Below are positions 611-63,941 of a DNA stretch of 64,000 nt, piece by piece. Below the pieces are notes generated by a model. That model saw only the letters and a program-made list of their open reading frames with translations, did not search any database and was not told the origin of the DNA. The first letter of the stretch is position 1, and the number at the start of each line of letters is the position of its first letter. Both the position numbers and the translations under genes were made by a program. The DNA lies in NCBI GenBank assembly GCA_017471445.1, contig JAFUTJ010000015.1, forward strand, positions 25,352-89,351. The letters are read 5' to 3'. The DNA is from Alphaproteobacteria bacterium. Its GTDB lineage: Bacteria; Pseudomonadota; Alphaproteobacteria; Rs-D84.

Positions 611-1273
611 ATGGAAAAACAAGAAATAAGAACTTTTGGACGGCGGCACGGCAAAAAATTATCAGCGCGTCAAACGCGATTGATTGACGTGGTTTTGCCA
701 ACAATTTCATACAAGAACATACAAAATAACGATAAAATTATCTTGGAAATCGGATTTGGCGCAGGCGAACATCTGCGTGAATTGGCAATAAAAAATACCG
801 ATAAAATTATCATTGGGGCCGAACCATTTATCAATGGCGTGGCCAGTCTGTTATCATCAATAACCAATAATTCAGACGATATTTTGCCGGAATATTCCAA
901 TATTCGCGTCTGGGCCGATGATGTGCGCCAGATGTTACGCGATTCAGAATTAAAATTTGATGAAATTTGGATTCTGCACCCCGACCCATGGCCCAAGGCA
1001 AAACATGAAAAACGCCGGTTATTATCGGCCGAATTCTTAAATACACTGGGGCAACATTTAACACAAAACGGTGAAATTATAATCGGGACAGACCATTGGG
1101 AATATTATGAATGGATTGTTGACCAGTCACAAAAAACAAACTTAACCCGGCAAACACCGGAAATTAACACTATAAAAACCCGGTACCAAAATAAAAATAT
1201 GGCCGGAACAGACGCACCAAAATACCTGATACTTACAAAACCATTGCCAGCGTCACCGCAACCGGCAAAATAA
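611..1273 (+). CDS. trmB: tRNA (guanine46-N7)-methyltransferase
   Basis: 220 aa. It carries the SAM-binding LEIGFGAGEHL motif and the conserved HPDPWPKAKHEKRRL motif of TrmB. Confidence 0.9.
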   Translation: MEKQEIRTFGRRHGKKLSARQTRLIDVVLPTISYKNIQNNDKIILEIGFGAGEHLRELAIKNTDKIIIGAEPFINGVASLLSSITNNSDDILPEYSNIRVWADDVRQMLRDSELKFDEIWILHPDPWPKAKHEKRRLLSAEFLNTLGQHLTQNGEIIIGTDHWEYYEWIVDQSQKTNLTRQTPEINTIKTRYQNKNMAGTDAPKYLILTKPLPASPQPAK

Positions 1274-4449: not shown

Positions 4450-5343
4450 TTAATTTGTTGGTACCAATTTTCCGCCCTGCATCTTTACTGCACTAATCCA
4501 ACATGTTGCGCCATTGCGTGGAACCGCCATGGCGTATTTTGTATGCTTTTCCGCATAAATATTTATGCCATTCATTGCCGTTTCGCCAATCCGACACAGC
4601 GGCAGGCACCGTCCATCACTTGTATGCCCATACCCCGCATCGCATTCCCAACAATCACGCGGTGTTAATGCGGTACCAGATACCCCCGGCATATTGGCAT
4701 AATGTGAATTTGGTGGCATATTTGTACAATCACGTATACCGGTGCAAATATAATTTTTTGTACTTCGACTATCACATCCATATATTTCGACCGCACCCGT
4801 AATTGGGTCATTATAGTATTCTTGTATGATATATGCGTTTTGTGAATCTGAATAAAACGCCTCGGCAAAAATACTGTTATGGTCGTCTGCGACCTTAAAA
4901 TTGTAATAACATTCTGTTATGTTTTTGGCGGTTAAAGACTTCGTTCGTGGCACCTTATAAACTGCAAACAAATAAATATCATTATAATCTTTGTAATATA
5001 CTTCCCATCCCCATGTTTTTTTGGGACATTCATATCGCGTATCATCCCCCGGGCAATAGCCGTATGCGACTTCTTTGTGCAGAACCACATCATTACATGT
5101 AATACATCTACCGTTTGACAAATAATACCCGGCATCGCATGTTGCAGCATTGGCAACGCCAATGCTGCAACAAAGTGCAATGAGCAGAGAACAAAAAGTA
5201 ATTTTTAATTTACACGCATGCCTTGTATGCGGATTTTTATTCACCCAGATTCCACGGTCAGGCCATAGAATTACATCAAATATTTTTTGCATCGTTGCTT
5301 TTTTGGATACAACTGAACTCTGAACACTGACAACTGTTGTCAT
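4450..5343 (-). CDS. Secreted cysteine-rich protein, family A paralog 1 (conserved C-terminal module)
   Basis: Signal-peptide h-region FCSLLIALCCSIGVANA. The mature N-terminus is ATCDAGYYLSNGRCITC. The C-terminus CWECDAGYGHTSDGRCLPLCRIGETAMNGINIYAEKHTKYAMAVPRNGATCWISA..QGGKL is shared with two other genes. RBS GGGGGA lies before the ATG at 5343. Confidence 0.75.
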   Translation of the reverse strand: MTTVVSVQSSVVSKKATMQKIFDVILWPDRGIWVNKNPHTRHACKLKITFCSLLIALCCSIGVANAATCDAGYYLSNGRCITCNDVVLHKEVAYGYCPGDDTRYECPKKTWGWEVYYKDYNDIYLFAVYKVPRTKSLTAKNITECYYNFKVADDHNSIFAEAFYSDSQNAYIIQEYYNDPITGAVEIYGCDSRSTKNYICTGIRDCTNMPPNSHYANMPGVSGTALTPRDCWECDAGYGHTSDGRCLPLCRIGETAMNGINIYAEKHTKYAMAVPRNGATCWISAVKMQGGKLVPTN

Positions 5344-5377
5344 AATTTCCCCCTTTCTGTTTCACGAATAAAAAATT

Positions 5378-5484
5378 CCGCGATGAAAAGCGCGGTCAGG
5401 GTGTTCAGAAAATCAAATCACACAATGACTCCTGTGGTCTTTTGCATTGCATTATAACCACAGGCACCCCAACCAAAATTAGGG
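5378..5484 (-). promoter_or_regulatory. Conserved structured 5' leader element of family A genes (copy 1)
   Basis: About 105 nt align position by position with 13245-13344, the same distance from the start codon. There are three helices with compensatory changes: CCTGTGG/CCACAGG versus CCATCGG/CCGTTGG; CCGCG/CGCGG versus CCGCA/TGCGG; CCCUAA/UUGGGG with a G-U wobble versus CCCCGA/TCGGGG. Confidence 0.5.
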
Positions 5485-5597
5485 ACATTAATATCGATGC
5501 AAAACATGGAATATTCTTTGAATTACGATGTTCGGCATCGGTGTGATAAAGGCTTTCTGACAGCCCCAAGGTTGATTTCCATCAAACCTTAATAAGT

Positions 5598-5626
5598 ATT
5601 ATATTTTATATGGTGTATAAAAACAA
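5598..5626 (-). promoter_or_regulatory. Candidate sigma70-like promoter for family A paralog 1 (TTGTTT-17-TATAAT on minus strand)
   Basis: Read on the minus strand: TTGTTT, a 17-nt spacer, then TATAAT. It lies about 110 nt upstream of the conserved leader element. This is pattern only. Confidence 0.25.
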
Positions 5627-5634
5627 TATCTAAA

Positions 5635-11336: not shown

Positions 11337-12338
11337 CTAATTCACCATCTGTAATTTCCCGCCCTGCCCCCGTTTTGCATTAATCCAACACGTTGCATCG
11401 CCGCGTGGTACCGCCATGGCGTATTTGGTATGCTTTTCGGCGTATATATTTATTCCGTTCATTGCGGTTTCACCAATCCGGCACAGTGGTAAACACCGGT
11501 CATCGGATGTGTGACCGAATCCATCATCGCATTCCCATGGGCAATTTGGTGTGCCATCGGTTGTATTTGCGGCGGTATAGTGTGCATTTGCCGGTGCGTT
11601 TGTGCATGGCATGCAATCTGATGCCGCGGCGGCGGTATCCGTTGCCGTATACGTGCCAACCGGACAATTATTAGTTAACGTCACAACATCAGATGAATAA
11701 TAACCCCAACCAACAGGAATACATTTTATATTTGCCGCATCATCAAAACTCTTAAATGTCATATAATAATAACTTAAATTACTATAATTCGTTAGTGTCC
11801 TAAAATTAAACCAATACCCTGTATCACAAATCGGGAAACGCTGAATAGACGATGTTAAATTAAAATTACATTTATATGTTGCATTAACAGATGTAAAAGA
11901 AGAATTGGTGTCATTGTATGCGCATGAAAAATAACTGTATCCATGGTCAATTTTTACAACAAAATTAACTTCACAACGGGTAATGGATTCAACGACATTA
12001 TCACCATTAACCCACGAACTATACTTGTGTAAATAATCTATATGGTCTGAATCAATTTCTGGGCATCGCATTCGTAAATCATTACCTGGACAATAATACG
12101 ATGGTGTTTCACCATTACTGCGATTACATGGTTGGCACGTGCCCGTATCATCCAACCAATACCCCGCATCACACGTTGCGGCATGGGCATTGGTTAACAT
12201 GCACATGCCAAACACCACACCCCATGCACCAAAAAACCACCGTTTTTTGTGCACGGGTAAAGGAAAATAAAATGGCGGATTTCTGGGGCTTTGTAAAAAA
12301 CAATTTGTGCACCAAAAAACGGTGGTTTTTTGGTGCAC
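11337..12338 (-). CDS. Secreted cysteine-rich protein, family A paralog 2
   Basis: It starts on GTG at 12338 with AGGGAAAT as RBS. An alternative GTG start at 12254 would give a clean signal peptide, (V/M)HKKRWFFGAWGVVFGMCMLTNAHA. The mature N-terminus is ATCDAGYWL..C..C. The C-terminal 70 aa are nearly identical to paralog 3. Confidence 0.7.
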   Translation of the reverse strand: MHQKTTVFWCTNCFLQSPRNPPFYFPLPVHKKRWFFGAWGVVFGMCMLTNAHAATCDAGYWLDDTGTCQPCNRSNGETPSYYCPGNDLRMRCPEIDSDHIDYLHKYSSWVNGDNVVESITRCEVNFVVKIDHGYSYFSCAYNDTNSSFTSVNATYKCNFNLTSSIQRFPICDTGYWFNFRTLTNYSNLSYYYMTFKSFDDAANIKCIPVGWGYYSSDVVTLTNNCPVGTYTATDTAAAASDCMPCTNAPANAHYTAANTTDGTPNCPWECDDGFGHTSDDRCLPLCRIGETAMNGINIYAEKHTKYAMAVPRGDATCWINAKRGQGGKLQMVN

Positions 12339-12403: not shown

Positions 12404-13207
12404 CTAATTTACCGGAACCAATTTACCACCCTGCCCCCGTTTTGCACTAATCCAACATGTTGCGCCACCGCGTGGTACGGCCATGGCGTATTTGGTATGC
12501 TTTTCGGCATATATGTTAATACCGTTCATTGCGGTTTCACCAATCCGACACAGTGGTAAACACCGGTCATCGGATGTGTGACCGAATCCATCATCGCATT
12601 CCCACGGGCAATCGTTTGCGTCCTTAATTGTGCCATCCACACTATCTGGTGTACCGGGGCCGGTATAGTGCGCATTTGCCGGCGCGTTGGTGCATGGTTT
12701 TACGCCATTGTACCAAACTTTATACGTGGTACTTCTATATGGCGATAGATAATAACCGGTTCCCGCCTCATAATAATATACGCATCTAACGGGGTATTCT
12801 TGCTTGGTTGTGTCGTATGCAACCTCTGACAGGCAACTATAATTCTTAAAAACAAAAAATGTATGGCGCCAACAGTTTGTAATTTTGGAACGCGCCGCCT
12901 GTGACGAACCGTCATACGTAAATCCTGTGCCCCAAGAAGACACTCCGGGCCTCAACTCCTCTATGAAAGTATCATCAAGAAACTGGTCATATTTTCCAAT
13001 ATATTTATCTTCGGGGCATTCGTATCTGATATCATCACCCGGACAATAATATGCATTTTCGCAATATGTACATTCGTTTTCAGTATTCAGATAAAAATTT
13101 GCCGGACAATTTGCGGCGCGGGCCGTGCCGACACCGCCAAACGCCACCAGCGCAAAAATCGCCATACCGCAAATTTTACGTTTATTATAACATATAAATC
13201 TTGTCAT
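12404..13207 (-). CDS. Secreted cysteine-rich protein, family A paralog 3
   Basis: Signal peptide MTRFICYNKRKICGMAIFALVAFGGVGTARA. Mature N-terminus ANCPANFYLNTENECTYC. The conserved C-terminal module is CPWECDDGFGHTSDDRCLPLCRIGETAMNGINIYAEKHTKYAMAVPRGGATCWISAKRGQGGKL. RBS GGGGGA. Confidence 0.75.
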   Translation of the reverse strand: MTRFICYNKRKICGMAIFALVAFGGVGTARAANCPANFYLNTENECTYCENAYYCPGDDIRYECPEDKYIGKYDQFLDDTFIEELRPGVSSWGTGFTYDGSSQAARSKITNCWRHTFFVFKNYSCLSEVAYDTTKQEYPVRCVYYYEAGTGYYLSPYRSTTYKVWYNGVKPCTNAPANAHYTGPGTPDSVDGTIKDANDCPWECDDGFGHTSDDRCLPLCRIGETAMNGINIYAEKHTKYAMAVPRGGATCWISAKRGQGGKLVPVN

Positions 13208-13244
13208 GATTTTATTCCCCCATTTGGTTTATTAAAATTAAACA

Positions 13245-13344
13245 CCGCAATGAAAATGCGGTCGGGGTGTAAGAAAATCACAATCAAGAATGATCCCAAC
13301 GGTCTTCGATATATAACCGATGGCACCCCGACCAAAATCGGGGG
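13245..13344 (-). promoter_or_regulatory. Conserved structured 5' leader element of family A genes (copy 2)
   Basis: It aligns with 5378-5484 and shows covariation in three helices (details under the copy 1 feature). Confidence 0.5.
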
Positions 13345-13510
13345 TATATACAATAACCGGCGCACACCGCGCCATTATTGCAACGGATTCAATACGTATT
13401 TGCACGTATCAACTTGATTGTGGACTTTCTTAGGGTCCCGAACCCAATTCCCATTGGATTCAGAATTATTTTAACGTAAACCAAGTATTAAACACAAGGT
13501 AATTTAGATA

Positions 13511-27525: not shown

Positions 27526-28449
27526 TTCCCGCCCATAAATAAATTCACTGGTACCGGAATTTTGGTGGAATTTTTGTTCCATCATGTCCCACATACCGTT
27601 ACTGGGCACCGTGTAATCGCCGATTCGTAATCCCGCCGGCACCGGAACCATGGTACGAATAATATCGTTAGAACGGCTGATGGTTATATCATATAGTTTT
27701 GCGATTGTTTTTGTATCACTGCTCGGATGAAGTAAAGTTATATTCTTGTCATTACCGTCAAAGTCAAAATAATTTATGTTTCTTACAACATCATCAAATA
27801 TAATATATCCAGAATTATTATAATTAAACATCAATGTGTATTTGTGATTCATAACAAGTTCATTAACCGATAATACCGGATTAGAATAACCAGAACCAGG
27901 CCCATAACCACAGGTAAATAACGTAACCCCATTATTGGTTCCACAATAAAAATGCGGGGAATATGTCGCAAATATTGGCGATGCCAGTTCGGTCAATTGA
28001 ATATATGCAAAATGCGTTTTAACGCCAACATTGTTTGCAGGGACAACATTTGTGCGAATTAATTGTTCACCGCTTGATTGAATATACACATCTGGGTCGG
28101 CATTAATCAGTTTACCGCCCGCAATTGTGTACCATGGACTGTAATCTGCGTGTAATACAATGTCGTGCGTATATGCGTACGGAATTGTTGTATTTGATGT
28201 AATAATTGTGTCACTGTCACCCACACGCCATGCGGGCGCATTGTTACAACCAACACCGGTTGTAAAGTTATTACCATACGCGGTGCTTTGTTGTGTTGGG
28301 GCATTCCCACCCGCCGGACAATCGTATGTTACGGTATATTGTTTCGGTATACAGAACTTTACATTTTCTGGTAATTCGGCATTTGCATTTGCCCAGAACA
28401 ACATCAAACCAAACAACACAGAAAACAACGATGATAATTTGTGTGTCAT
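27517..28449 (-). CDS. Secreted protein, family B paralog 1
   Basis: It starts at MTHKLSSLFSVLFGLMLFWANANA (signal peptide). Residues 1 to about 115 are nearly identical to 45659-46630. The rest is homologous but diverged (PHFYCG, FNYNNSG.IIFD, VPxGLRIGxYxVPxNGM, IYGR). Confidence 0.75.
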   Translation of the reverse strand: MTHKLSSLFSVLFGLMLFWANANAELPENVKFCIPKQYTVTYDCPAGGNAPTQQSTAYGNNFTTGVGCNNAPAWRVGDSDTIITSNTTIPYAYTHDIVLHADYSPWYTIAGGKLINADPDVYIQSSGEQLIRTNVVPANNVGVKTHFAYIQLTELASPIFATYSPHFYCGTNNGVTLFTCGYGPGSGYSNPVLSVNELVMNHKYTLMFNYNNSGYIIFDDVVRNINYFDFDGNDKNITLLHPSSDTKTIAKLYDITISRSNDIIRTMVPVPAGLRIGDYTVPSNGMWDMMEQKFHQNSGTSEFIYGRESE

Positions 28450-28690
28450 ATCTTTTTTTCCTCCCTGTTCCTTTATTTTTTCTAATAAAAAATATCCCAC
28501 GCGAAAACCGCAGTGGTTGGAGGTTCATAACTACAATAAGGTATAGCGGGCCTATTCAATATATTCAGCACCCCTCCAACCAAATTTAGATTGGAGATTT
28601 ACTATCGCCGCCCATACGGCAATACCTTATTTCAGGGTTATGACGCCCCAACACGTGCGAACACGCGTCGCGATAATATTAAATCATATT
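28450..28690 (-). promoter_or_regulatory. Conserved 5' leader of family B genes (copy 1) with long hairpin GGTTGGAGG...CCTCCAACC (28515-28581)
   Basis: Immediately upstream of the ATG, 74 nt are identical to 45585-45658. A 9-bp inverted repeat encloses about 50 nt. Further upstream similarity extends to the GCGACG...TGGGGCGTCA block. Confidence 0.45.
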
Positions 28691-45316: not shown

Positions 45317-45439
45317 GATTTCTCCTTTGTATTATAGGCTCAGAATAGACAAAAATCCCCCATATGTAAAGGGTTTTCTGAATACATAGAATTTGTGTAA
45401 TTTACTTGTATTGTTACGATATTTGGTGATATTATTTTC

Positions 45440-45658
45440 TTGATGCGACGTATTGTCGCATTGGGCGTCAGAACCCATAGAGGTGTCGGGATTACACCGA
45501 CAATTAAAATTCCAGCCGGCTATTTATCGGTTGGAGTGTGTGGAATATTTAGAATAACACACGCAATTCCTCTAATTGTTCTGAAGCTCCAACCACTGCG
45601 GTTTTCGCGTGGGATATTTTTTATTAGAAAAAATAAAGGAACAGGGAGAAAAAAAGAT
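45440..45658 (+). promoter_or_regulatory. Conserved 5' leader of family B genes (copy 2) with hairpin GGTTGGAG...CTCCAACC (45529-45594)
   Basis: The 74 nt before the ATG are identical to copy 1, and the upstream GCGACG...TGGGCGTCA block is shared. It contains the RBS GGAACAGGGAG. Confidence 0.45.
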
Positions 45659-46630
45659 ATGACAGGCAAATTATCATCATCGGTGTTTTATGTGTTGTTT
45701 GGTTTGATGTTGTTCTGGGCAAATGCAAATGCCGAATTACCAGAAAATGTAAAGTTCTGTATACCGAAACAATATAGGGTAACATACGATTGTCCGGCGG
45801 GTGGGAATGCGCCAACACAACAAACCACCGCGTATGGTAATAACTTTACAACCGGTGTTGGTTGTAACAATGCGCCCGCATGGCGTGTTGATGACAGTGA
45901 CACAATAATTACATCAAATACAACAATTCCATACGCATATACGCACGACATTGTATTACACGCAGATTACAGTCCGTGGTACACAATTGCGGGCGGACGG
46001 CTGATTAATGCCGATGCGGATGTGTATTTAAACAACAATCTTTCTGCATACGCATCATATGGCATTGATACGGGTGTAATGTCCACAAATAATATCGGAT
46101 GGGCAATTAATTTTACATATGAACAATTCAGAAATAGCGAAACACCAGAACATATTATTGGAACAATGTTCCCACATTTTTATTGTGGAATTGATACGGC
46201 CCATACTGGTTTTCTTTGCGCCTGTGGCCCAGAGGCCGGTTATGGAAACGGCATTGAAAACTACACAAATATGATTGTCGGCAAAAAATACAATCTGTTA
46301 TTTAACTATAATAATTCTGGCAAAATTATTTTTGATTACACGACCAATCTTGATTTATCGTGCACAGAATTGAATAACACGATTGGTAACACAATACGTT
46401 TGTTTCGTTCAACATCACAAAACGTAAATGCAACCAGCACGAATAATTATAGCATGGCAAAAATATATGATGTAAAAATCAGCGATGGCCAAACAATGAT
46501 TCGTAATTTTGTGGCGGTACCGTCGGGTCTGCGCATTGGTAATTATATCGTTCCAAAAAACGGCATGTTTGATATTGTTGAACAGAAATTTTATCAACCT
46601 GTTGCGAATATGATATATGGGCGCGATTAA
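45659..46630 (+). CDS. Secreted protein, family B paralog 2
   Basis: The start is at MTGKLSSSVFYVLFGLMLFWANANA (ATG at 45659, RBS GGGAG). The ORF-track start at 45440 is an in-frame upstream extension through the leader. The N-terminal 115 aa are nearly identical to paralog 1. Confidence 0.75.
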   Translation: MTGKLSSSVFYVLFGLMLFWANANAELPENVKFCIPKQYRVTYDCPAGGNAPTQQTTAYGNNFTTGVGCNNAPAWRVDDSDTIITSNTTIPYAYTHDIVLHADYSPWYTIAGGRLINADADVYLNNNLSAYASYGIDTGVMSTNNIGWAINFTYEQFRNSETPEHIIGTMFPHFYCGIDTAHTGFLCACGPEAGYGNGIENYTNMIVGKKYNLLFNYNNSGKIIFDYTTNLDLSCTELNNTIGNTIRLFRSTSQNVNATSTNNYSMAKIYDVKISDGQTMIRNFVAVPSGLRIGNYIVPKNGMFDIVEQKFYQPVANMIYGRD

Positions 46631-49095: not shown

Positions 49096-49453
49096 GCCCA
49101 GATATAAAATGGAATTTTACAATTATAAGAAAACACTTATATACCGCTAAGAACTAAACGACTTGCTTTTTTTGGTATCTTTCACAATAATAGTAAATGA
49201 ATCCAATGGGAATTGGGTTTGGGGCATTAGCGTGCCCGTTTGCATCCGGTGCGATTGCGTCGTTAAAAAAATATATTTTACAACACTTTTGCACCGAATT
49301 TTGTCATTGTTCCCCGAACGTTGGTCTGGGGTGCCGGTGGTTATACAACAGGTTTCTAAACCAAAGGCCATCCGGGTCATTGATGCAAATGATACGCTAA
49401 CACCCCGACCATCAATTTCCGTTGATGGTTTTTATTTTTTTATGGGGGAAATT

Positions 49454-50332
49454 ATGAAAAAATTTATTCTTATTTTGATATGCATGAACATAACACTGCC
49501 ATGCTTTGGCAAATTTAAAATACAAGACAGCAATTCATGCGTTATTGATACATATGGGCGCAATAAGTATTGGTTCTGTGGGTCAACAAATAAAACAAAA
49601 TGTGGCTCTACAACATTCTCTCGCGATAATCGCGAAGCACGTGATATGACACATGGCGAAGTTGTAACAGATTATCGCGCACGTGGTACGCATGACCATT
49701 ATAATTTGTTATGTTGTGTGGTTGATGGCAAGGGATTCTTTAAGTACACAACCAAGAGCAAGGCGAAACCAGCCGAATTAAAAAATGAATACATATCGGA
49801 AAATATTACAATTAAAACAGACGAAGGCGGATCATGTACATATGTTAAAACCGTTGATACATGCGGCAATATTATTTCTGATATACCATGCACCGCACGT
49901 GACGACTGTCAAAGCGATGAAATTGTTCGTAATAAAAAATGTGTTAAACCATGCACAGAACCATTGGTGTTTTTTTCGCCAGATGTTGATACATGTGTTA
50001 ATTGTGAAGAAACAAATTACCAAGGTATCGCAATGGACAGCCAAGGCCACAAATATTGCAAAAAATGTGCAGACAACGAAATATGGTTAAAAACCAAAAA
50101 AGACTGTGTAAAAAAAGAAACTTTGACCATTGTGAACAAGGTTGATATGCAAAGATGTTGGCAATGCAAAAGCGTTGATTCATTCAGAAAATGCGCACTG
50201 GGCGAAGATGTTACATGCGGGTCATCTGCATCAACCGGCACAGAGAAAAACAAGCAAACAATACCAACACCAACACTGAAACGTGTTGAAACGGGCCCAA
50301 TACAAAATCTGGGCAAAGTAATTCCGTTTTAA
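49454..50332 (+). CDS. Secreted cysteine-rich hypothetical protein (292 aa)
   Basis: Starts MKKFILILICMNITLPCFG with RBS GGGGGA. It has about 30 Cys, many in CxxC pairs (CVNCEE, CKKCAD, CWQCKS). The ORF-track start at 49163 is an upstream in-frame extension. Confidence 0.6.
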   Translation: MKKFILILICMNITLPCFGKFKIQDSNSCVIDTYGRNKYWFCGSTNKTKCGSTTFSRDNREARDMTHGEVVTDYRARGTHDHYNLLCCVVDGKGFFKYTTKSKAKPAELKNEYISENITIKTDEGGSCTYVKTVDTCGNIISDIPCTARDDCQSDEIVRNKKCVKPCTEPLVFFSPDVDTCVNCEETNYQGIAMDSQGHKYCKKCADNEIWLKTKKDCVKKETLTIVNKVDMQRCWQCKSVDSFRKCALGEDVTCGSSASTGTEKNKQTIPTPTLKRVETGPIQNLGKVIPF

Positions 50333-52615: not shown

Positions 52616-55015
<2,400 letters not shown>

Positions 55016-55181
55016 TTATTTTCCCTTTCTTTTTATCGTGAAAAACATAGCAATTTCTGCTATAATTATCAAGAAAATTTATGATTTTGGATTGCCGTTT
55101 TCTGATTCATAATTTATGCAAGCAATGAAGCCGGAAATCCAAAACCAAGCCCCAGGAATAACATACAAAGGATTTATAAAC

Positions 55182-63864: not shown

Positions 63865-63941
<77 letters not shown>

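Follow-up and report, generated by a model that had tools for sequence, protein, structure and literature searches.

A pseudoknotted leader RNA ahead of unrelated genes in a gut alphaproteobacterium: a probable transcription attenuator related to sRNA-Xcc1

Which kind of element can stand, in recognisably the same form, directly ahead of genes that share no function? The question arises from a 64,000-nucleotide stretch of DNA of an uncultured gut alphaproteobacterium (GTDB lineage Rs-D84; assembly GCA_017471445.1, contig JAFUTJ010000015.1, positions 25,352 to 89,351), referred to here as the window. A first-pass annotation, made from the sequence alone, had pointed to two similar stretches of about 105 nt, lying between unrelated flanks at the same distance upstream of two genes of one effector-like family (family A), and had proposed that they encode a structured, functional RNA. 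The computational analysis described here extends this element to a promoter-proximal leader of ~230-290 nt, which is put forward, with moderate confidence, as a cis-acting transcription attenuator that probably gates translation too, and as a divergent alphaproteobacterial branch of the sRNA-Xcc1 class of small RNAs (Rfam RF02221).

The similarity of the two stretches is real. Copy 1 (5340-5487, minus strand) and copy 2 (13207-13346, minus strand) are ~75% identical and terminate at an identical Shine-Dalgarno (SD)-ATG arrangement, and an nhmmer search recovers them with E = 8e-46 and E = 1e-42, respectively, together with a third copy at 49310-49450 on the plus strand. The genes upstream of copies 1 and 2 are unrelated, encoding a lipoprotein of the LppC/periplasmic-binding type and, as judged by sequence inspection, a DNA primase, so that no larger duplication accounts for the similarity. 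Instead of the two copies first reported, the covariance model R2 (described below) finds exactly five in the window: copies 1 and 2, with core scores of 135 and 122 bits, copy 3 at 49310-49457 on the plus strand (106 bits), copy 4 at 28459-28594 on the minus strand (71 bits), and copy 5 at 45523-45650 on the plus strand (60 bits). Overall, 58 members were collected. The leader is not specific to family A either, as three of the five window copies precede genes of two other families, and many members elsewhere precede genes of other kinds. The window copies occur on either strand, interspersed with housekeeping genes, and each stands ahead of a gene of its own. A sixth, weak match (55012-55137, minus strand; E = 0.05-0.2) was rejected; it precedes a long open reading frame (ORF) of the housekeeping type and lacks the strands named G1 and C2 below.

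The element also turned out to be larger than had been noticed, the ~105 nt being only the 3' half of a conserved structured region of ~250 nt in copy 1 (5344 to ~5590). Another ~130 nt lie beyond the core and reach up to the promoter; three hairpins (H1 to H3) and the pseudoknot are found upstream. The parts of copy 1 are as follows:

5344-5590, minus strand: full leader, from H1 to the base before the ATG (core located by R2, upstream hairpins read from the sequence)
5598-5626, minus strand: putative sigma-70 promoter, with TTGTTT (5621-5626), a 17-nt spacer and TATAAT (5598-5603)
5568-5590, minus strand: hairpin H1 at the 5' end of the leader, AAGGUUUGAU-GGAA-AUCAACCUU, starting 7 nt after the -10 box
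5551-5565, minus strand: hairpin H2, GGCU/AGCC, with the loop UCAGAAA (5554-5560) as the 5' strand of the pseudoknot
5526-5540, minus strand: hairpin H3, CGAUG-CCGAA-CAUCG, read from the sequence
5467-5484, minus strand: hairpin P0, CCCUAA-UUUUGG-UUGGGG, which ties up the 5' strand of P1 (putative anti-antiterminator)
5394-5474, minus strand: three-way junction, closed by P1 in a putative antiterminator role
5465-5474 with 5394-5403, minus strand: helix P1, GGUUGGGGUG with CACCCUGACC
5458-5464 with 5431-5437, minus strand: helix P2
5426-5429 with 5412-5415, minus strand: helix P3
5405-5411, minus strand: 3' strand of the pseudoknot, UUUCUGA, in J3/1 (between P3 and the 3' strand of P1), pairing with 5554-5560
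5367-5395, minus strand: intrinsic terminator called by a terminator scan, CCGCG-CUUUUCAU-CGCGG (5378-5395) followed by the U-run AAUUUUUUAUU
5341-5353, minus strand: Shine-Dalgarno GGGGG (5349-5353) and start codon ATG (5341-5343)

A first covariance model, R1, was built from three copies, and was rebuilt as R2 from 18 sequences, all of them from the gut family. The wider set of 58 members was drawn from genomes of related gut Alphaproteobacteria and from metagenomes, and includes the five window copies; 14 further members come from loci of related metagenome-assembled genomes (MAGs) of mouse and other sources. In addition, metagenome DNA was scanned for the conserved first hairpin H1 alone (CCAATGGRRATTGGGTTYGGG), which yielded 49 loci, one of them labelled human gut metagenome and the others with record names that give no source. 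R2 recovers the core in 40 of these 49 loci, and in 38 of them the core lies 58-113 nt downstream of H1 on the same strand. As this set was not chosen on the core, it provides an independent test of the core structure. A metagenome contig scan anchored on the family A protein alignment returned zero relatives.

The core is organised around P1, a helix (GGUYGGGGUG/CACCCYGACC, 10 bp, in copies 1-3, GGUUGGAGG/CCUCCAACC in copies 4 and 5) that closes a three-way junction carrying the arms P2 and P3. Each of the four pairings proposed in the first-pass annotation has a place in this scheme: GGGGUG/CACCCC is part of P1; CCUGUGG/CCACAGG, matched in the second copy by CCAUCGG/CCGUUGG with one U-U mismatch, is P2; CCGCG/CGCGG, matched by CCGCA/UGCGG, is a hairpin followed by a U-run that is scored as an intrinsic terminator; and CCCUAA/UUGGGG, matched by CCCCGA/UCGGGG, is P0. 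Their covariation is confirmed in both sets. In the first one (n = 18), 94.3% of the cells are paired against 33-46% in slid controls, and in the independent one (n = 37) 95.0% against 27-50%, percentages that are inflated by the fact that the covariance-model alignments are fitted to the structure; 21 of the 24 pairs vary on both sides in either set, and 0 of 500 shuffles reached the observed pairing in each. Even with fitted alignments, the size of the pairing effect and the variety of pair types are far beyond the controls. The proposal of a functional RNA on the sense strand is likewise borne out by the ratio of G-U to A-C pairs (126:29), an excess which indicates that the sense strand is the one that folds. 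All 58 members lie on the coding strand of an ORF that starts no more than 66 nt from the 3' end of the match, nearly always with an SD-ATG, and the conserved region extends past the SD as far as the ATG, whose distance is fixed.

What could not be maintained is the idea that the four helices form one fold. P0 (CCCUAA/UUGGGG in copy 1, typically CCCUGAC/GUCGGGG) and P1 share a single G-rich strand, so they cannot coexist, and P1 in turn excludes the terminator. The shared strand is called G1 here, its partner in P0 is C1, and its partner in P1 is C2. A P0 hairpin on the 5' strand of P1 is found in 58/58 members, with a predicted stability of -14.6 kcal/mol, compared to -7.8 kcal/mol when the upstream sequence is shuffled. 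P1 is followed by a GC-rich hairpin with a U-run (T), which a consensus scan calls as a terminator in copies 1-3 (5378-5395, 13244-13262 and 49407-49430), and which across the 58 members has a mean predicted stability of -11.2 kcal/mol and a mean of 6.7 U in its 10-nt tail. The 5' strand of the copy 1 terminator has bases in common with the 3' strand of P1, and in 51 of the 58 members the two strands overlap by 3-6 nt when both helices are maximally extended. Once P1 holds the overlapping bases, the predicted stability of T drops from -11.2 to -2.9 kcal/mol. The state with P0 and T and the state with P1 are nearly equal in predicted stability, with a mean gap of 2.4 kcal/mol by constrained folding that excludes the pseudoknot; the pseudoknot, taken as a duplex, accounts for approximately -6 to -7 kcal/mol.

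The ribosome-binding site takes part in the same set of alternatives. The 5' strand of P0 and the 3' strand of P1 are nearly one and the same C-rich sequence, and both are complementary to the G-rich SD, which is paired with the 5' strand of P0 in the minimum-energy folds of copies 1 and 2. Within one genome, members with a CCCC strand have SDs of the GGGG type and members with a CUCC strand have SDs of the GGAG type, a correspondence noted by eye, with no statistics. Coupling to a fixed SD sequence would explain why the helices are conserved in sequence while the pseudoknot drifts.

Upstream of the core, almost every member shows the same order from 5' to 3': H1, H2 (of the form GGG-loop-CCC), H3, a short linker, and P0. 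A -10-like box (TATAAT or TATACT) is located 7-10 nt before H1 in most members, which places the leader at a fixed position between a promoter-like site and the SD-ATG. H1 is strongly conserved in sequence in the main subtype (GAAUCCAAUGGGAAUUGGGUUC); on a plain MAFFT alignment, which was made without reference to a structure and has some register shifts, 99.6% of its cells are paired, and 5 of its 8 pairs vary on both sides. The 5' strand of H3 (CGAUGC in copy 1) has an alternative partner, GCAUCG at 5495-5500, and this distal pairing varies in step in other members (CGGUGC with GCACCG), as seen by eye and not quantified.

H1 contains an AUG (CCAAUGGGA) in 13440-13461 (minus strand), 49199-49220 (plus strand) and most metagenome members, where it opens ORFs beginning MGIGFG. 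These ORFs traverse P0 in roughly half of the members of the main subtype and end at very different places. They are not conserved past the residues encoded by H1 and H2, and they are absent from the second subtype; a leader peptide of the trp kind was rejected for this lack of conservation, the ORFs being probably a by-product of helices poor in stop codons.

The feature that binds the two halves of the leader together is a long-range pseudoknot, spanning roughly 100-150 nt, between the loop of H2 and J3/1, which lies directly 5' of the 3' strand of P1. The two strands are complementary and vary jointly from copy to copy, as seen in the window copies and in further pairs such as UCACUA/UAGUGA, UUUACAA/UUGUAAA, UGCUAA/UUAGCA and UUAGAACA/UGUUCUAA. 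An unrestricted duplex search against the 200 nt upstream was too noisy for this purpose, but the signal was clean once the search was confined to the H2 hairpin. Among 15 distinct members, each strand forms 7-9 contiguous bp with its own partner (mean 7.5) vs 4.1 with mismatched partners, a difference reached by 0 of 100,000 permutations; in an independent set of 26 distinct combinations, the means are 7.0 and 4.2 bp (0 of 20,000 permutations). On the MAFFT alignment, which like these permutation tests is free of structure-fitting bias, 81% of the cells are paired and 5 of 6 pairs vary on both sides; individual positions show as many as five pair types. The sole exception is the member at 620-758 (minus strand) of locus L024, whose H2 loop (GUAGAAAG) does not match its J3/1 (UUUGUGA); this copy may be decayed or chimeric. 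The remaining window copies and their pseudoknots are these:

13208-13461, minus strand: copy 2, full leader before the family A gene 12404-13207, with its terminator at 13244-13262
13426-13432 with 13270-13276, minus strand: copy 2 pseudoknot, UAAGAAA with UUUCUUA
49199-49454, plus strand: copy 3, full leader before the ATG at 49455, with its terminator at 49407-49430
49227-49233 with 49394-49400, plus strand: copy 3 pseudoknot, UUAGCGU with ACGCUAA
28450-28672, minus strand: copy 4, a divergent subtype, before the ATG at 28447-28449, with P1 GGUUGGAGG/CCUCCAACC and pseudoknot UCAUAA/UUAUGA
45442-45659, plus strand: copy 5, of the copy 4 subtype, before the ATG at 45660, with pseudoknot UCAGAA/UUCUGA and P0 CCAGCCG/CGGUUGG

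Between copies 4 and 5 (28380-28690, minus strand, and 45425-45730, plus strand), identity is ~98% over a stretch that begins at the P1 3' strand CTCCAACC and takes in the terminator, the SD and the first part of the coding sequence; upstream of this strand it is only ~50%, each copy still having its own matched pseudoknot. The leaders thus look mosaic, with a sharp breakpoint at the conserved strand. Copies 2 and 3, for their part, have an identical H1 and unrelated downstream genes.

A breakpoint of this kind at CTCCAACC, the multi-copy state of the element, the occurrence of its relatives in integron cassettes, plasmids and phages, and the resemblance of CUCCAAC/GUUGGAG to the R''/R' boxes of attC sites could all be accommodated by a repeat acting at the DNA level (a miniature inverted-repeat transposable element, or MITE, an attC-like site or a transposon end), with the RNA structure as a by-product. 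An attC site would have R''-L''...L'-R' boxes (RYYYAAC/GTTRRRY) and a length of 55-140 bp, would mark the 3' end of each cassette of a co-oriented array close to an integrase, and would function as folded single-stranded DNA. In the main subtype, the sequence is GUCGGGG/CCCCGAC instead of GTTRRRY, and neither target-site duplications, nor terminal inverted repeats enclosing the unit, nor a cassette array are seen in the window; no integrase was noticed there either, although no search of the window ORFs was aimed at one. Moreover, no member departs from the fixed orientation and spacing relative to the start codon, the excess of G-U pairs is specific to one strand, strands ~100-150 nt apart covary in dozens of variants, and terminator, SD and promoter are all present. 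The DNA-level explanation is highly improbable, and its attC and MITE forms were rejected on the fixed orientation, the strand bias and the pseudoknot.

Of the cis-regulatory roles that the first-pass annotation had considered, that of an attenuator fits these observations best. The proposed mechanism follows the order of synthesis. H1, H2 and H3 would form first, after which C1 would pair with G1 to give P0, the arms P2 and P3 would fold, and the junction strand could pair with the loop of H2. Then would come C2, which can pair with G1 to give P1, the T hairpin with its U-run, which overlaps C2, the SD, and the start codon. With P0 and T in place, transcription would be terminated, while P1 would close the junction, stack on the pseudoknot and remove 3-6 bases from T, allowing read-through. 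The choice between P0 plus T and pseudoknot plus P1 is presumed to be made co-transcriptionally, and the free C-rich strand would additionally mask the G-rich SD. An effector, which might be a protein, another RNA, a metabolite or the kinetics of transcription itself, would bias the choice, either by stabilising the pseudoknotted P1 fold or by keeping it from forming; a factor that captured the 5' strand of P0 or stabilised the stack of pseudoknot and P1 would switch on both read-through and translation. A protein partner is an attractive speculation in view of the high sequence conservation of H1.

Several points weigh against attenuation. The start of transcription, its termination and the read-through are all deduced from sequence. 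A consensus promoter scan of copies 1-3 reports none of the leader promoters, whose hexamers are weak, and the -35 hexamer of copy 1 matches the consensus at only 3/6 bases. The terminators of copies 1-3 are weak (-4.8 to -8.1 kcal/mol) and their P1 state is predicted to be slightly more stable, so that these copies could be mostly 'on'; U-runs are often interrupted. One C-rich strand is free to mask the SD in either state, which leaves no clear fully 'on' form. To these may be added the inflation of the paired percentages mentioned above, the stable 88-nt form of sRNA-Xcc1, and the title of Chen et al. 2011, which reportedly calls that RNA trans-acting.

The same architecture raises the possibility of a classical riboswitch, in which a small molecule would bind the pseudoknotted junction and stabilise P1 to allow read-through, a ligand pocket being conceivable where the pseudoknot, P1 and P3 may meet. 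The complex fold, the long-range pseudoknot and the overlap of P1 with the terminator are as in ON-type riboswitches, the two states are nearly equal in energy, the AUACAA...GAA internal loop of P2 is kept from the phage relatives to the gut family, and a global signal, for instance a second messenger, could explain why the targets are unrelated. However, P2 is variable: it mostly consists of this internal loop (UAUACAACA...GAAAG) topped by a tip that differs between members, but several members have a simple GNRA hairpin in its place and two lack it. Few conserved unpaired bases are left for a pocket, given that J1/2 is 0 nt and J2/3 1-2 nt long and J3/1 is taken by the pseudoknot, and the conserved sequence sits in helices with several alternative partners. 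The unrelated gene contexts and the very high copy number (five per 64 kb) also speak against a metabolite sensor, and a riboswitch is consequently considered unlikely; as the arm is dispensable, the junctions are used by helices and the genes are unrelated, neither this nor the thermometer mentioned in the first-pass annotation is favoured.

The genes under the leader are of many kinds. The family A genes 4450-5343 and 12404-13207 (both minus strand), which follow copies 1 and 2, encode paralogous Cys-rich secreted proteins that are 43% identical. A third family A gene, 11337-12338 (minus strand), lacks a leader of its own, follows 12404-13207 after a spacer of 65 nt and is probably co-transcribed with it; its true start may be internal to the listed ORF. 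Proteins of this family hold a signal peptide, 5-6% cysteine and a near-invariant C-terminal stretch of ~60 residues (CLPLCRIGETAMNGINIYAEKHTKYAMAVPR...). Searches of Pfam and NCBIfam gave nothing significant for them, and some of their homologues carry PF26010. The MAG to which the window belongs (locus tags IJ560_) holds at least 18 family A paralogues. Copy 3 precedes a gene for a Cys-rich secreted protein outside family A, and copy 4 a gene for a secreted protein of a third family, of which the copy 5 gene is a paralogue. In the wider set, the downstream genes encode lipoproteins, outer-membrane-type proteins, small membrane proteins, XRE regulators, methyltransferase-like proteins and many hypothetical proteins, and no common pathway or function is seen among them.

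Some members precede genes for small proteins (75-111 aa) of the XRE/helix-turn-helix (HTH) type (1564-1699 of locus L003, 3537-3677 and 7349-7491, the latter on the minus strand, of L006, and 722-867, minus strand, of L021), one of which is duplicated; these proteins are candidate regulators that would themselves be under leader control. Conversely, R2 finds no leader (E > 0.1) at the family A homologues of loci L001, L002, L004, L008 and L009 (all of MAG CASCZI01) and of L012, L013 and L016, several of which have upstream gaps of 360-480 nt. Either these loci have a more divergent version of the leader, or it is absent from that lineage.

Whether the leader belongs to a described class of RNA is a separate question. 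At the gathering threshold, the sole Rfam match in the whole window is a tRNA gene (63865-63938, plus strand, 63.9 bits), and copy 1 does not match RF02221 even at E <= 10. The first-pass statement that no known Rfam motif is recognisable therefore stands as far as thresholds go, with the qualification that a distant relative exists. In a permissive Rfam scan of 16 metagenome members, only locus L048 hits RF02221, with 35.3 bits (cut-off 53; E = 3e-4 in a 1-kb search), and the alignment covers the whole model (positions 1-87), with the same P1, P2 AUACAA...GAA loop and P3. The curated gathering score is 53 bits, and the true members fetched for comparison score 53.0-74.5 bits:

Kingella potus plasmid: RF02221 member, 56.4 bits, 38 nt before a KilA-N gene
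Vibrio phage VPBES: RF02221 member, 61.4 bits, annotated as 'sRNA-Xcc1', 30 nt before a coding sequence
Shigella phage POCJ13: two RF02221 members, 53.0 and 74.5 bits, each before an antirepressor gene

In the reverse direction, R2 detects all four of them (loci L067-L069) with 43.5 bits (E = 4e-8), 22.2, 18.6 and 13.3 bits, and its matches extend from P0 to the ATG. Both groups share P1 (GGnCGGGG/CCCCGnCC), the AUACAA...GAA internal loop of P2, P3 and a U-rich J3/1. As in the gut family, a co-oriented gene follows; it lies 30-45 nt beyond the fetched RF02221 members, with a sigma-70-like promoter ~130 nt upstream in each of the four, and with an upstream hairpin loop that complements J3/1 (UCGAAA/UUUCGA; CUCGAAA/UUUCGAG); in most of them, a P0-like hairpin, a hairpin overlapping the 3' strand of P1, and an SD can be read. 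The Rfam model itself spans only the junction and starts exactly at the 5' strand of P1. The reciprocal detection and the common architecture indicate that the window elements are a divergent alphaproteobacterial branch of the sRNA-Xcc1 class.

The gut family differs from RF02221 in that its H1 is conserved in sequence, that H3 takes the place of a hairpin with a U6 run, and that it precedes chromosomal genes of many kinds instead of antirepressor, KilA-N or symE genes. In the RF02221 members from beta- and gammaproteobacteria, the hairpin with U6 (...CCCGAUAGC...GGCUUUUUUGUGCC) comes after the pseudoknot hairpin and before the junction, and looks like an upstream terminator. Its place is taken in the gut family by H3, whose distal 3' strand is immediately preceded by a U-rich run, UUUU-UUUUU (5' strand CGGUGC, then ...UUUUU-GCACCG). 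The U6 hairpins are found at these sites:

L067, ~1385-1405: hairpin with U6
L068, ~1100-1135: hairpin with U6
L069, ~250-290 and 770-800: hairpins with U6

Among 5426 complete E. coli genomes, 160 have the POCJ13 leader between Ant genes, that of O104:H4 being one of them. In Xanthomonas campestris, sRNA-Xcc1, an RNA of integron cassettes, was detected on Northern blots as a species of ~100 nt with mapped ends (88 nt; PMC2996969), and the mapped 5' end is the first base of P1. It has been located upstream of symE within the most widespread integron cassette of Xanthomonas, in the orientation opposite to most cassette genes (bioRxiv 10.1101/2025.06.18.660453), and upstream of an ORF6N gene in APSE phages (bioRxiv 10.1101/2020.03.17.996009), while Xylella holds seven copies, of which five form an array that repeats every ~385 nt (PMC12189769). 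It is treated in this literature as a virulence-linked small RNA (sRNA) under the control of HrpG/HrpX (PMC2996969, PMC12189769, bioRxiv 10.1101/2025.06.18.660453), and neither a pseudoknot nor an attenuator is described for it in PMC2996969, PMC12189769, bioRxiv 10.1101/2025.06.18.660453 or bioRxiv 10.1101/2020.03.17.996009.

These reports bring in the main rival to attenuation, according to which the functional product is a stable sRNA that consists of the three-way junction, is set free through termination at T, through processing at the start of P1 or through both, and acts in trans, the downstream gene being expressed only by read-through or not being the main target. Action of this kind is claimed for sRNA-Xcc1 and is known for two processed leader RNAs, c4 of P1/P7 and CI of P4. 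The RNA of ~100 nt with mapped ends (PMC2996969) and an Rfam model beginning at the 5' strand of P1 are what such a product would look like, and a terminator directly after the junction would release it. The strands C1, G1 and C2 of the leader, set out above, also resemble seqA, seqB and seqC of phage P4. A motif R[CU]CA (GCCA, ACCA or GUCA) stands directly 3' of P1 in 38 of the 58 members (for example in L023, L024 and L025), in the strict form RCCA in only 18 of 58. The arrangement is reminiscent of RNase P substrates, the c4 and CI RNAs among them, with their acceptor stem and NCCA, which would suit processing. On the other hand, the window copies lack the motif, conservation continues through the SD to the ATG with a co-oriented ORF in every member, G1 is buried in P1 in the mature fold, and Rfam C4 (RF01695) has no match in the window or in the 16 member loci, even at E <= 1 to 10. 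Antisense control of the c4 kind was rejected, as neither the P2/P3 loops nor the upstream domain show copy-specific complementarity to the translation start (permutation 542/5000 and 1751/5000). This rival is regarded as doubtful. A stable terminated or processed RNA acting in trans is nevertheless compatible with cis attenuation, and both could hold.

A wider proposal can be advanced tentatively, namely that the gut family and RF02221 together make up one widespread, unrecognised class of pseudoknotted antiterminator leaders, which are controlled by an effector, gate the expression of accessory and mobile genes and answer a single global signal, 'sRNA-Xcc1' being the terminated or processed core of such a leader. 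The genes gated may then include phage antirepressors, symE toxins, integron cassettes, and tens to hundreds of genes for surface or hypothetical proteins per genome of gut Alphaproteobacteria. The class is a known but poorly understood one, and the architectural findings, if they hold, re-interpret RF02221: an element annotated as a small RNA in phages, plasmids, integrons and E. coli prophages would be the core of a leader of ~250 nt, with a long-range pseudoknot and a three-helix attenuator. For the gut bacteria themselves, which are uncultured and poorly known, a single RNA device would control a very large set of unrelated genes. With five copies in the 64-kb window and, on related contigs, two or three in 12-20 kb, this would be among the densest cis-regulatory RNA regulons known. 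The presence of the same architecture before antirepressor genes of E. coli makes the mechanism testable in a tractable host.

In its proposed role as an attenuator, the gut leader can be compared with several known systems. The trp leader of E. coli (1:2, 2:3 and 3:4) and the pyr leader of B. subtilis likewise have successive exclusive helices and a terminator just before the gene, and those of the pyr leader are an anti-antiterminator, an antiterminator and a terminator, set by the protein PyrR. The trp attenuator has a leader peptide, whereas no conserved one is found in the gut leader, and the latter has no known binding protein or binding motif. Contrary to both, the gut leader has a three-way junction within its antiterminator, which is linked in addition to a long-range pseudoknot. 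In the pbuE adenine riboswitch, which is of the ON type, the closing P1 shares bases with the terminator, as it does here, and stabilisation of the fold leads to read-through; the gut leader differs in having few conserved unpaired bases for a pocket, a dispensable P2, unrelated genes, and an additional helix, P0, that competes with P1. A further comparison is with the c4 RNA of phages P1 and P7 and the CI RNA of P4, processed leader RNAs of phage immunity systems, which are compact multi-hairpin RNAs encoded in the leader of the operon that they control. In P4, a central sequence is complementary to one upstream and one downstream copy, as G1 is to C1 and C2, and c4 and CI are found before antirepressor genes, as is RF02221 in the prophages of E. 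coli. Unlike c4 and CI, the gut leader keeps its variable complementary pair internal, between the loop of H2 and J3/1.

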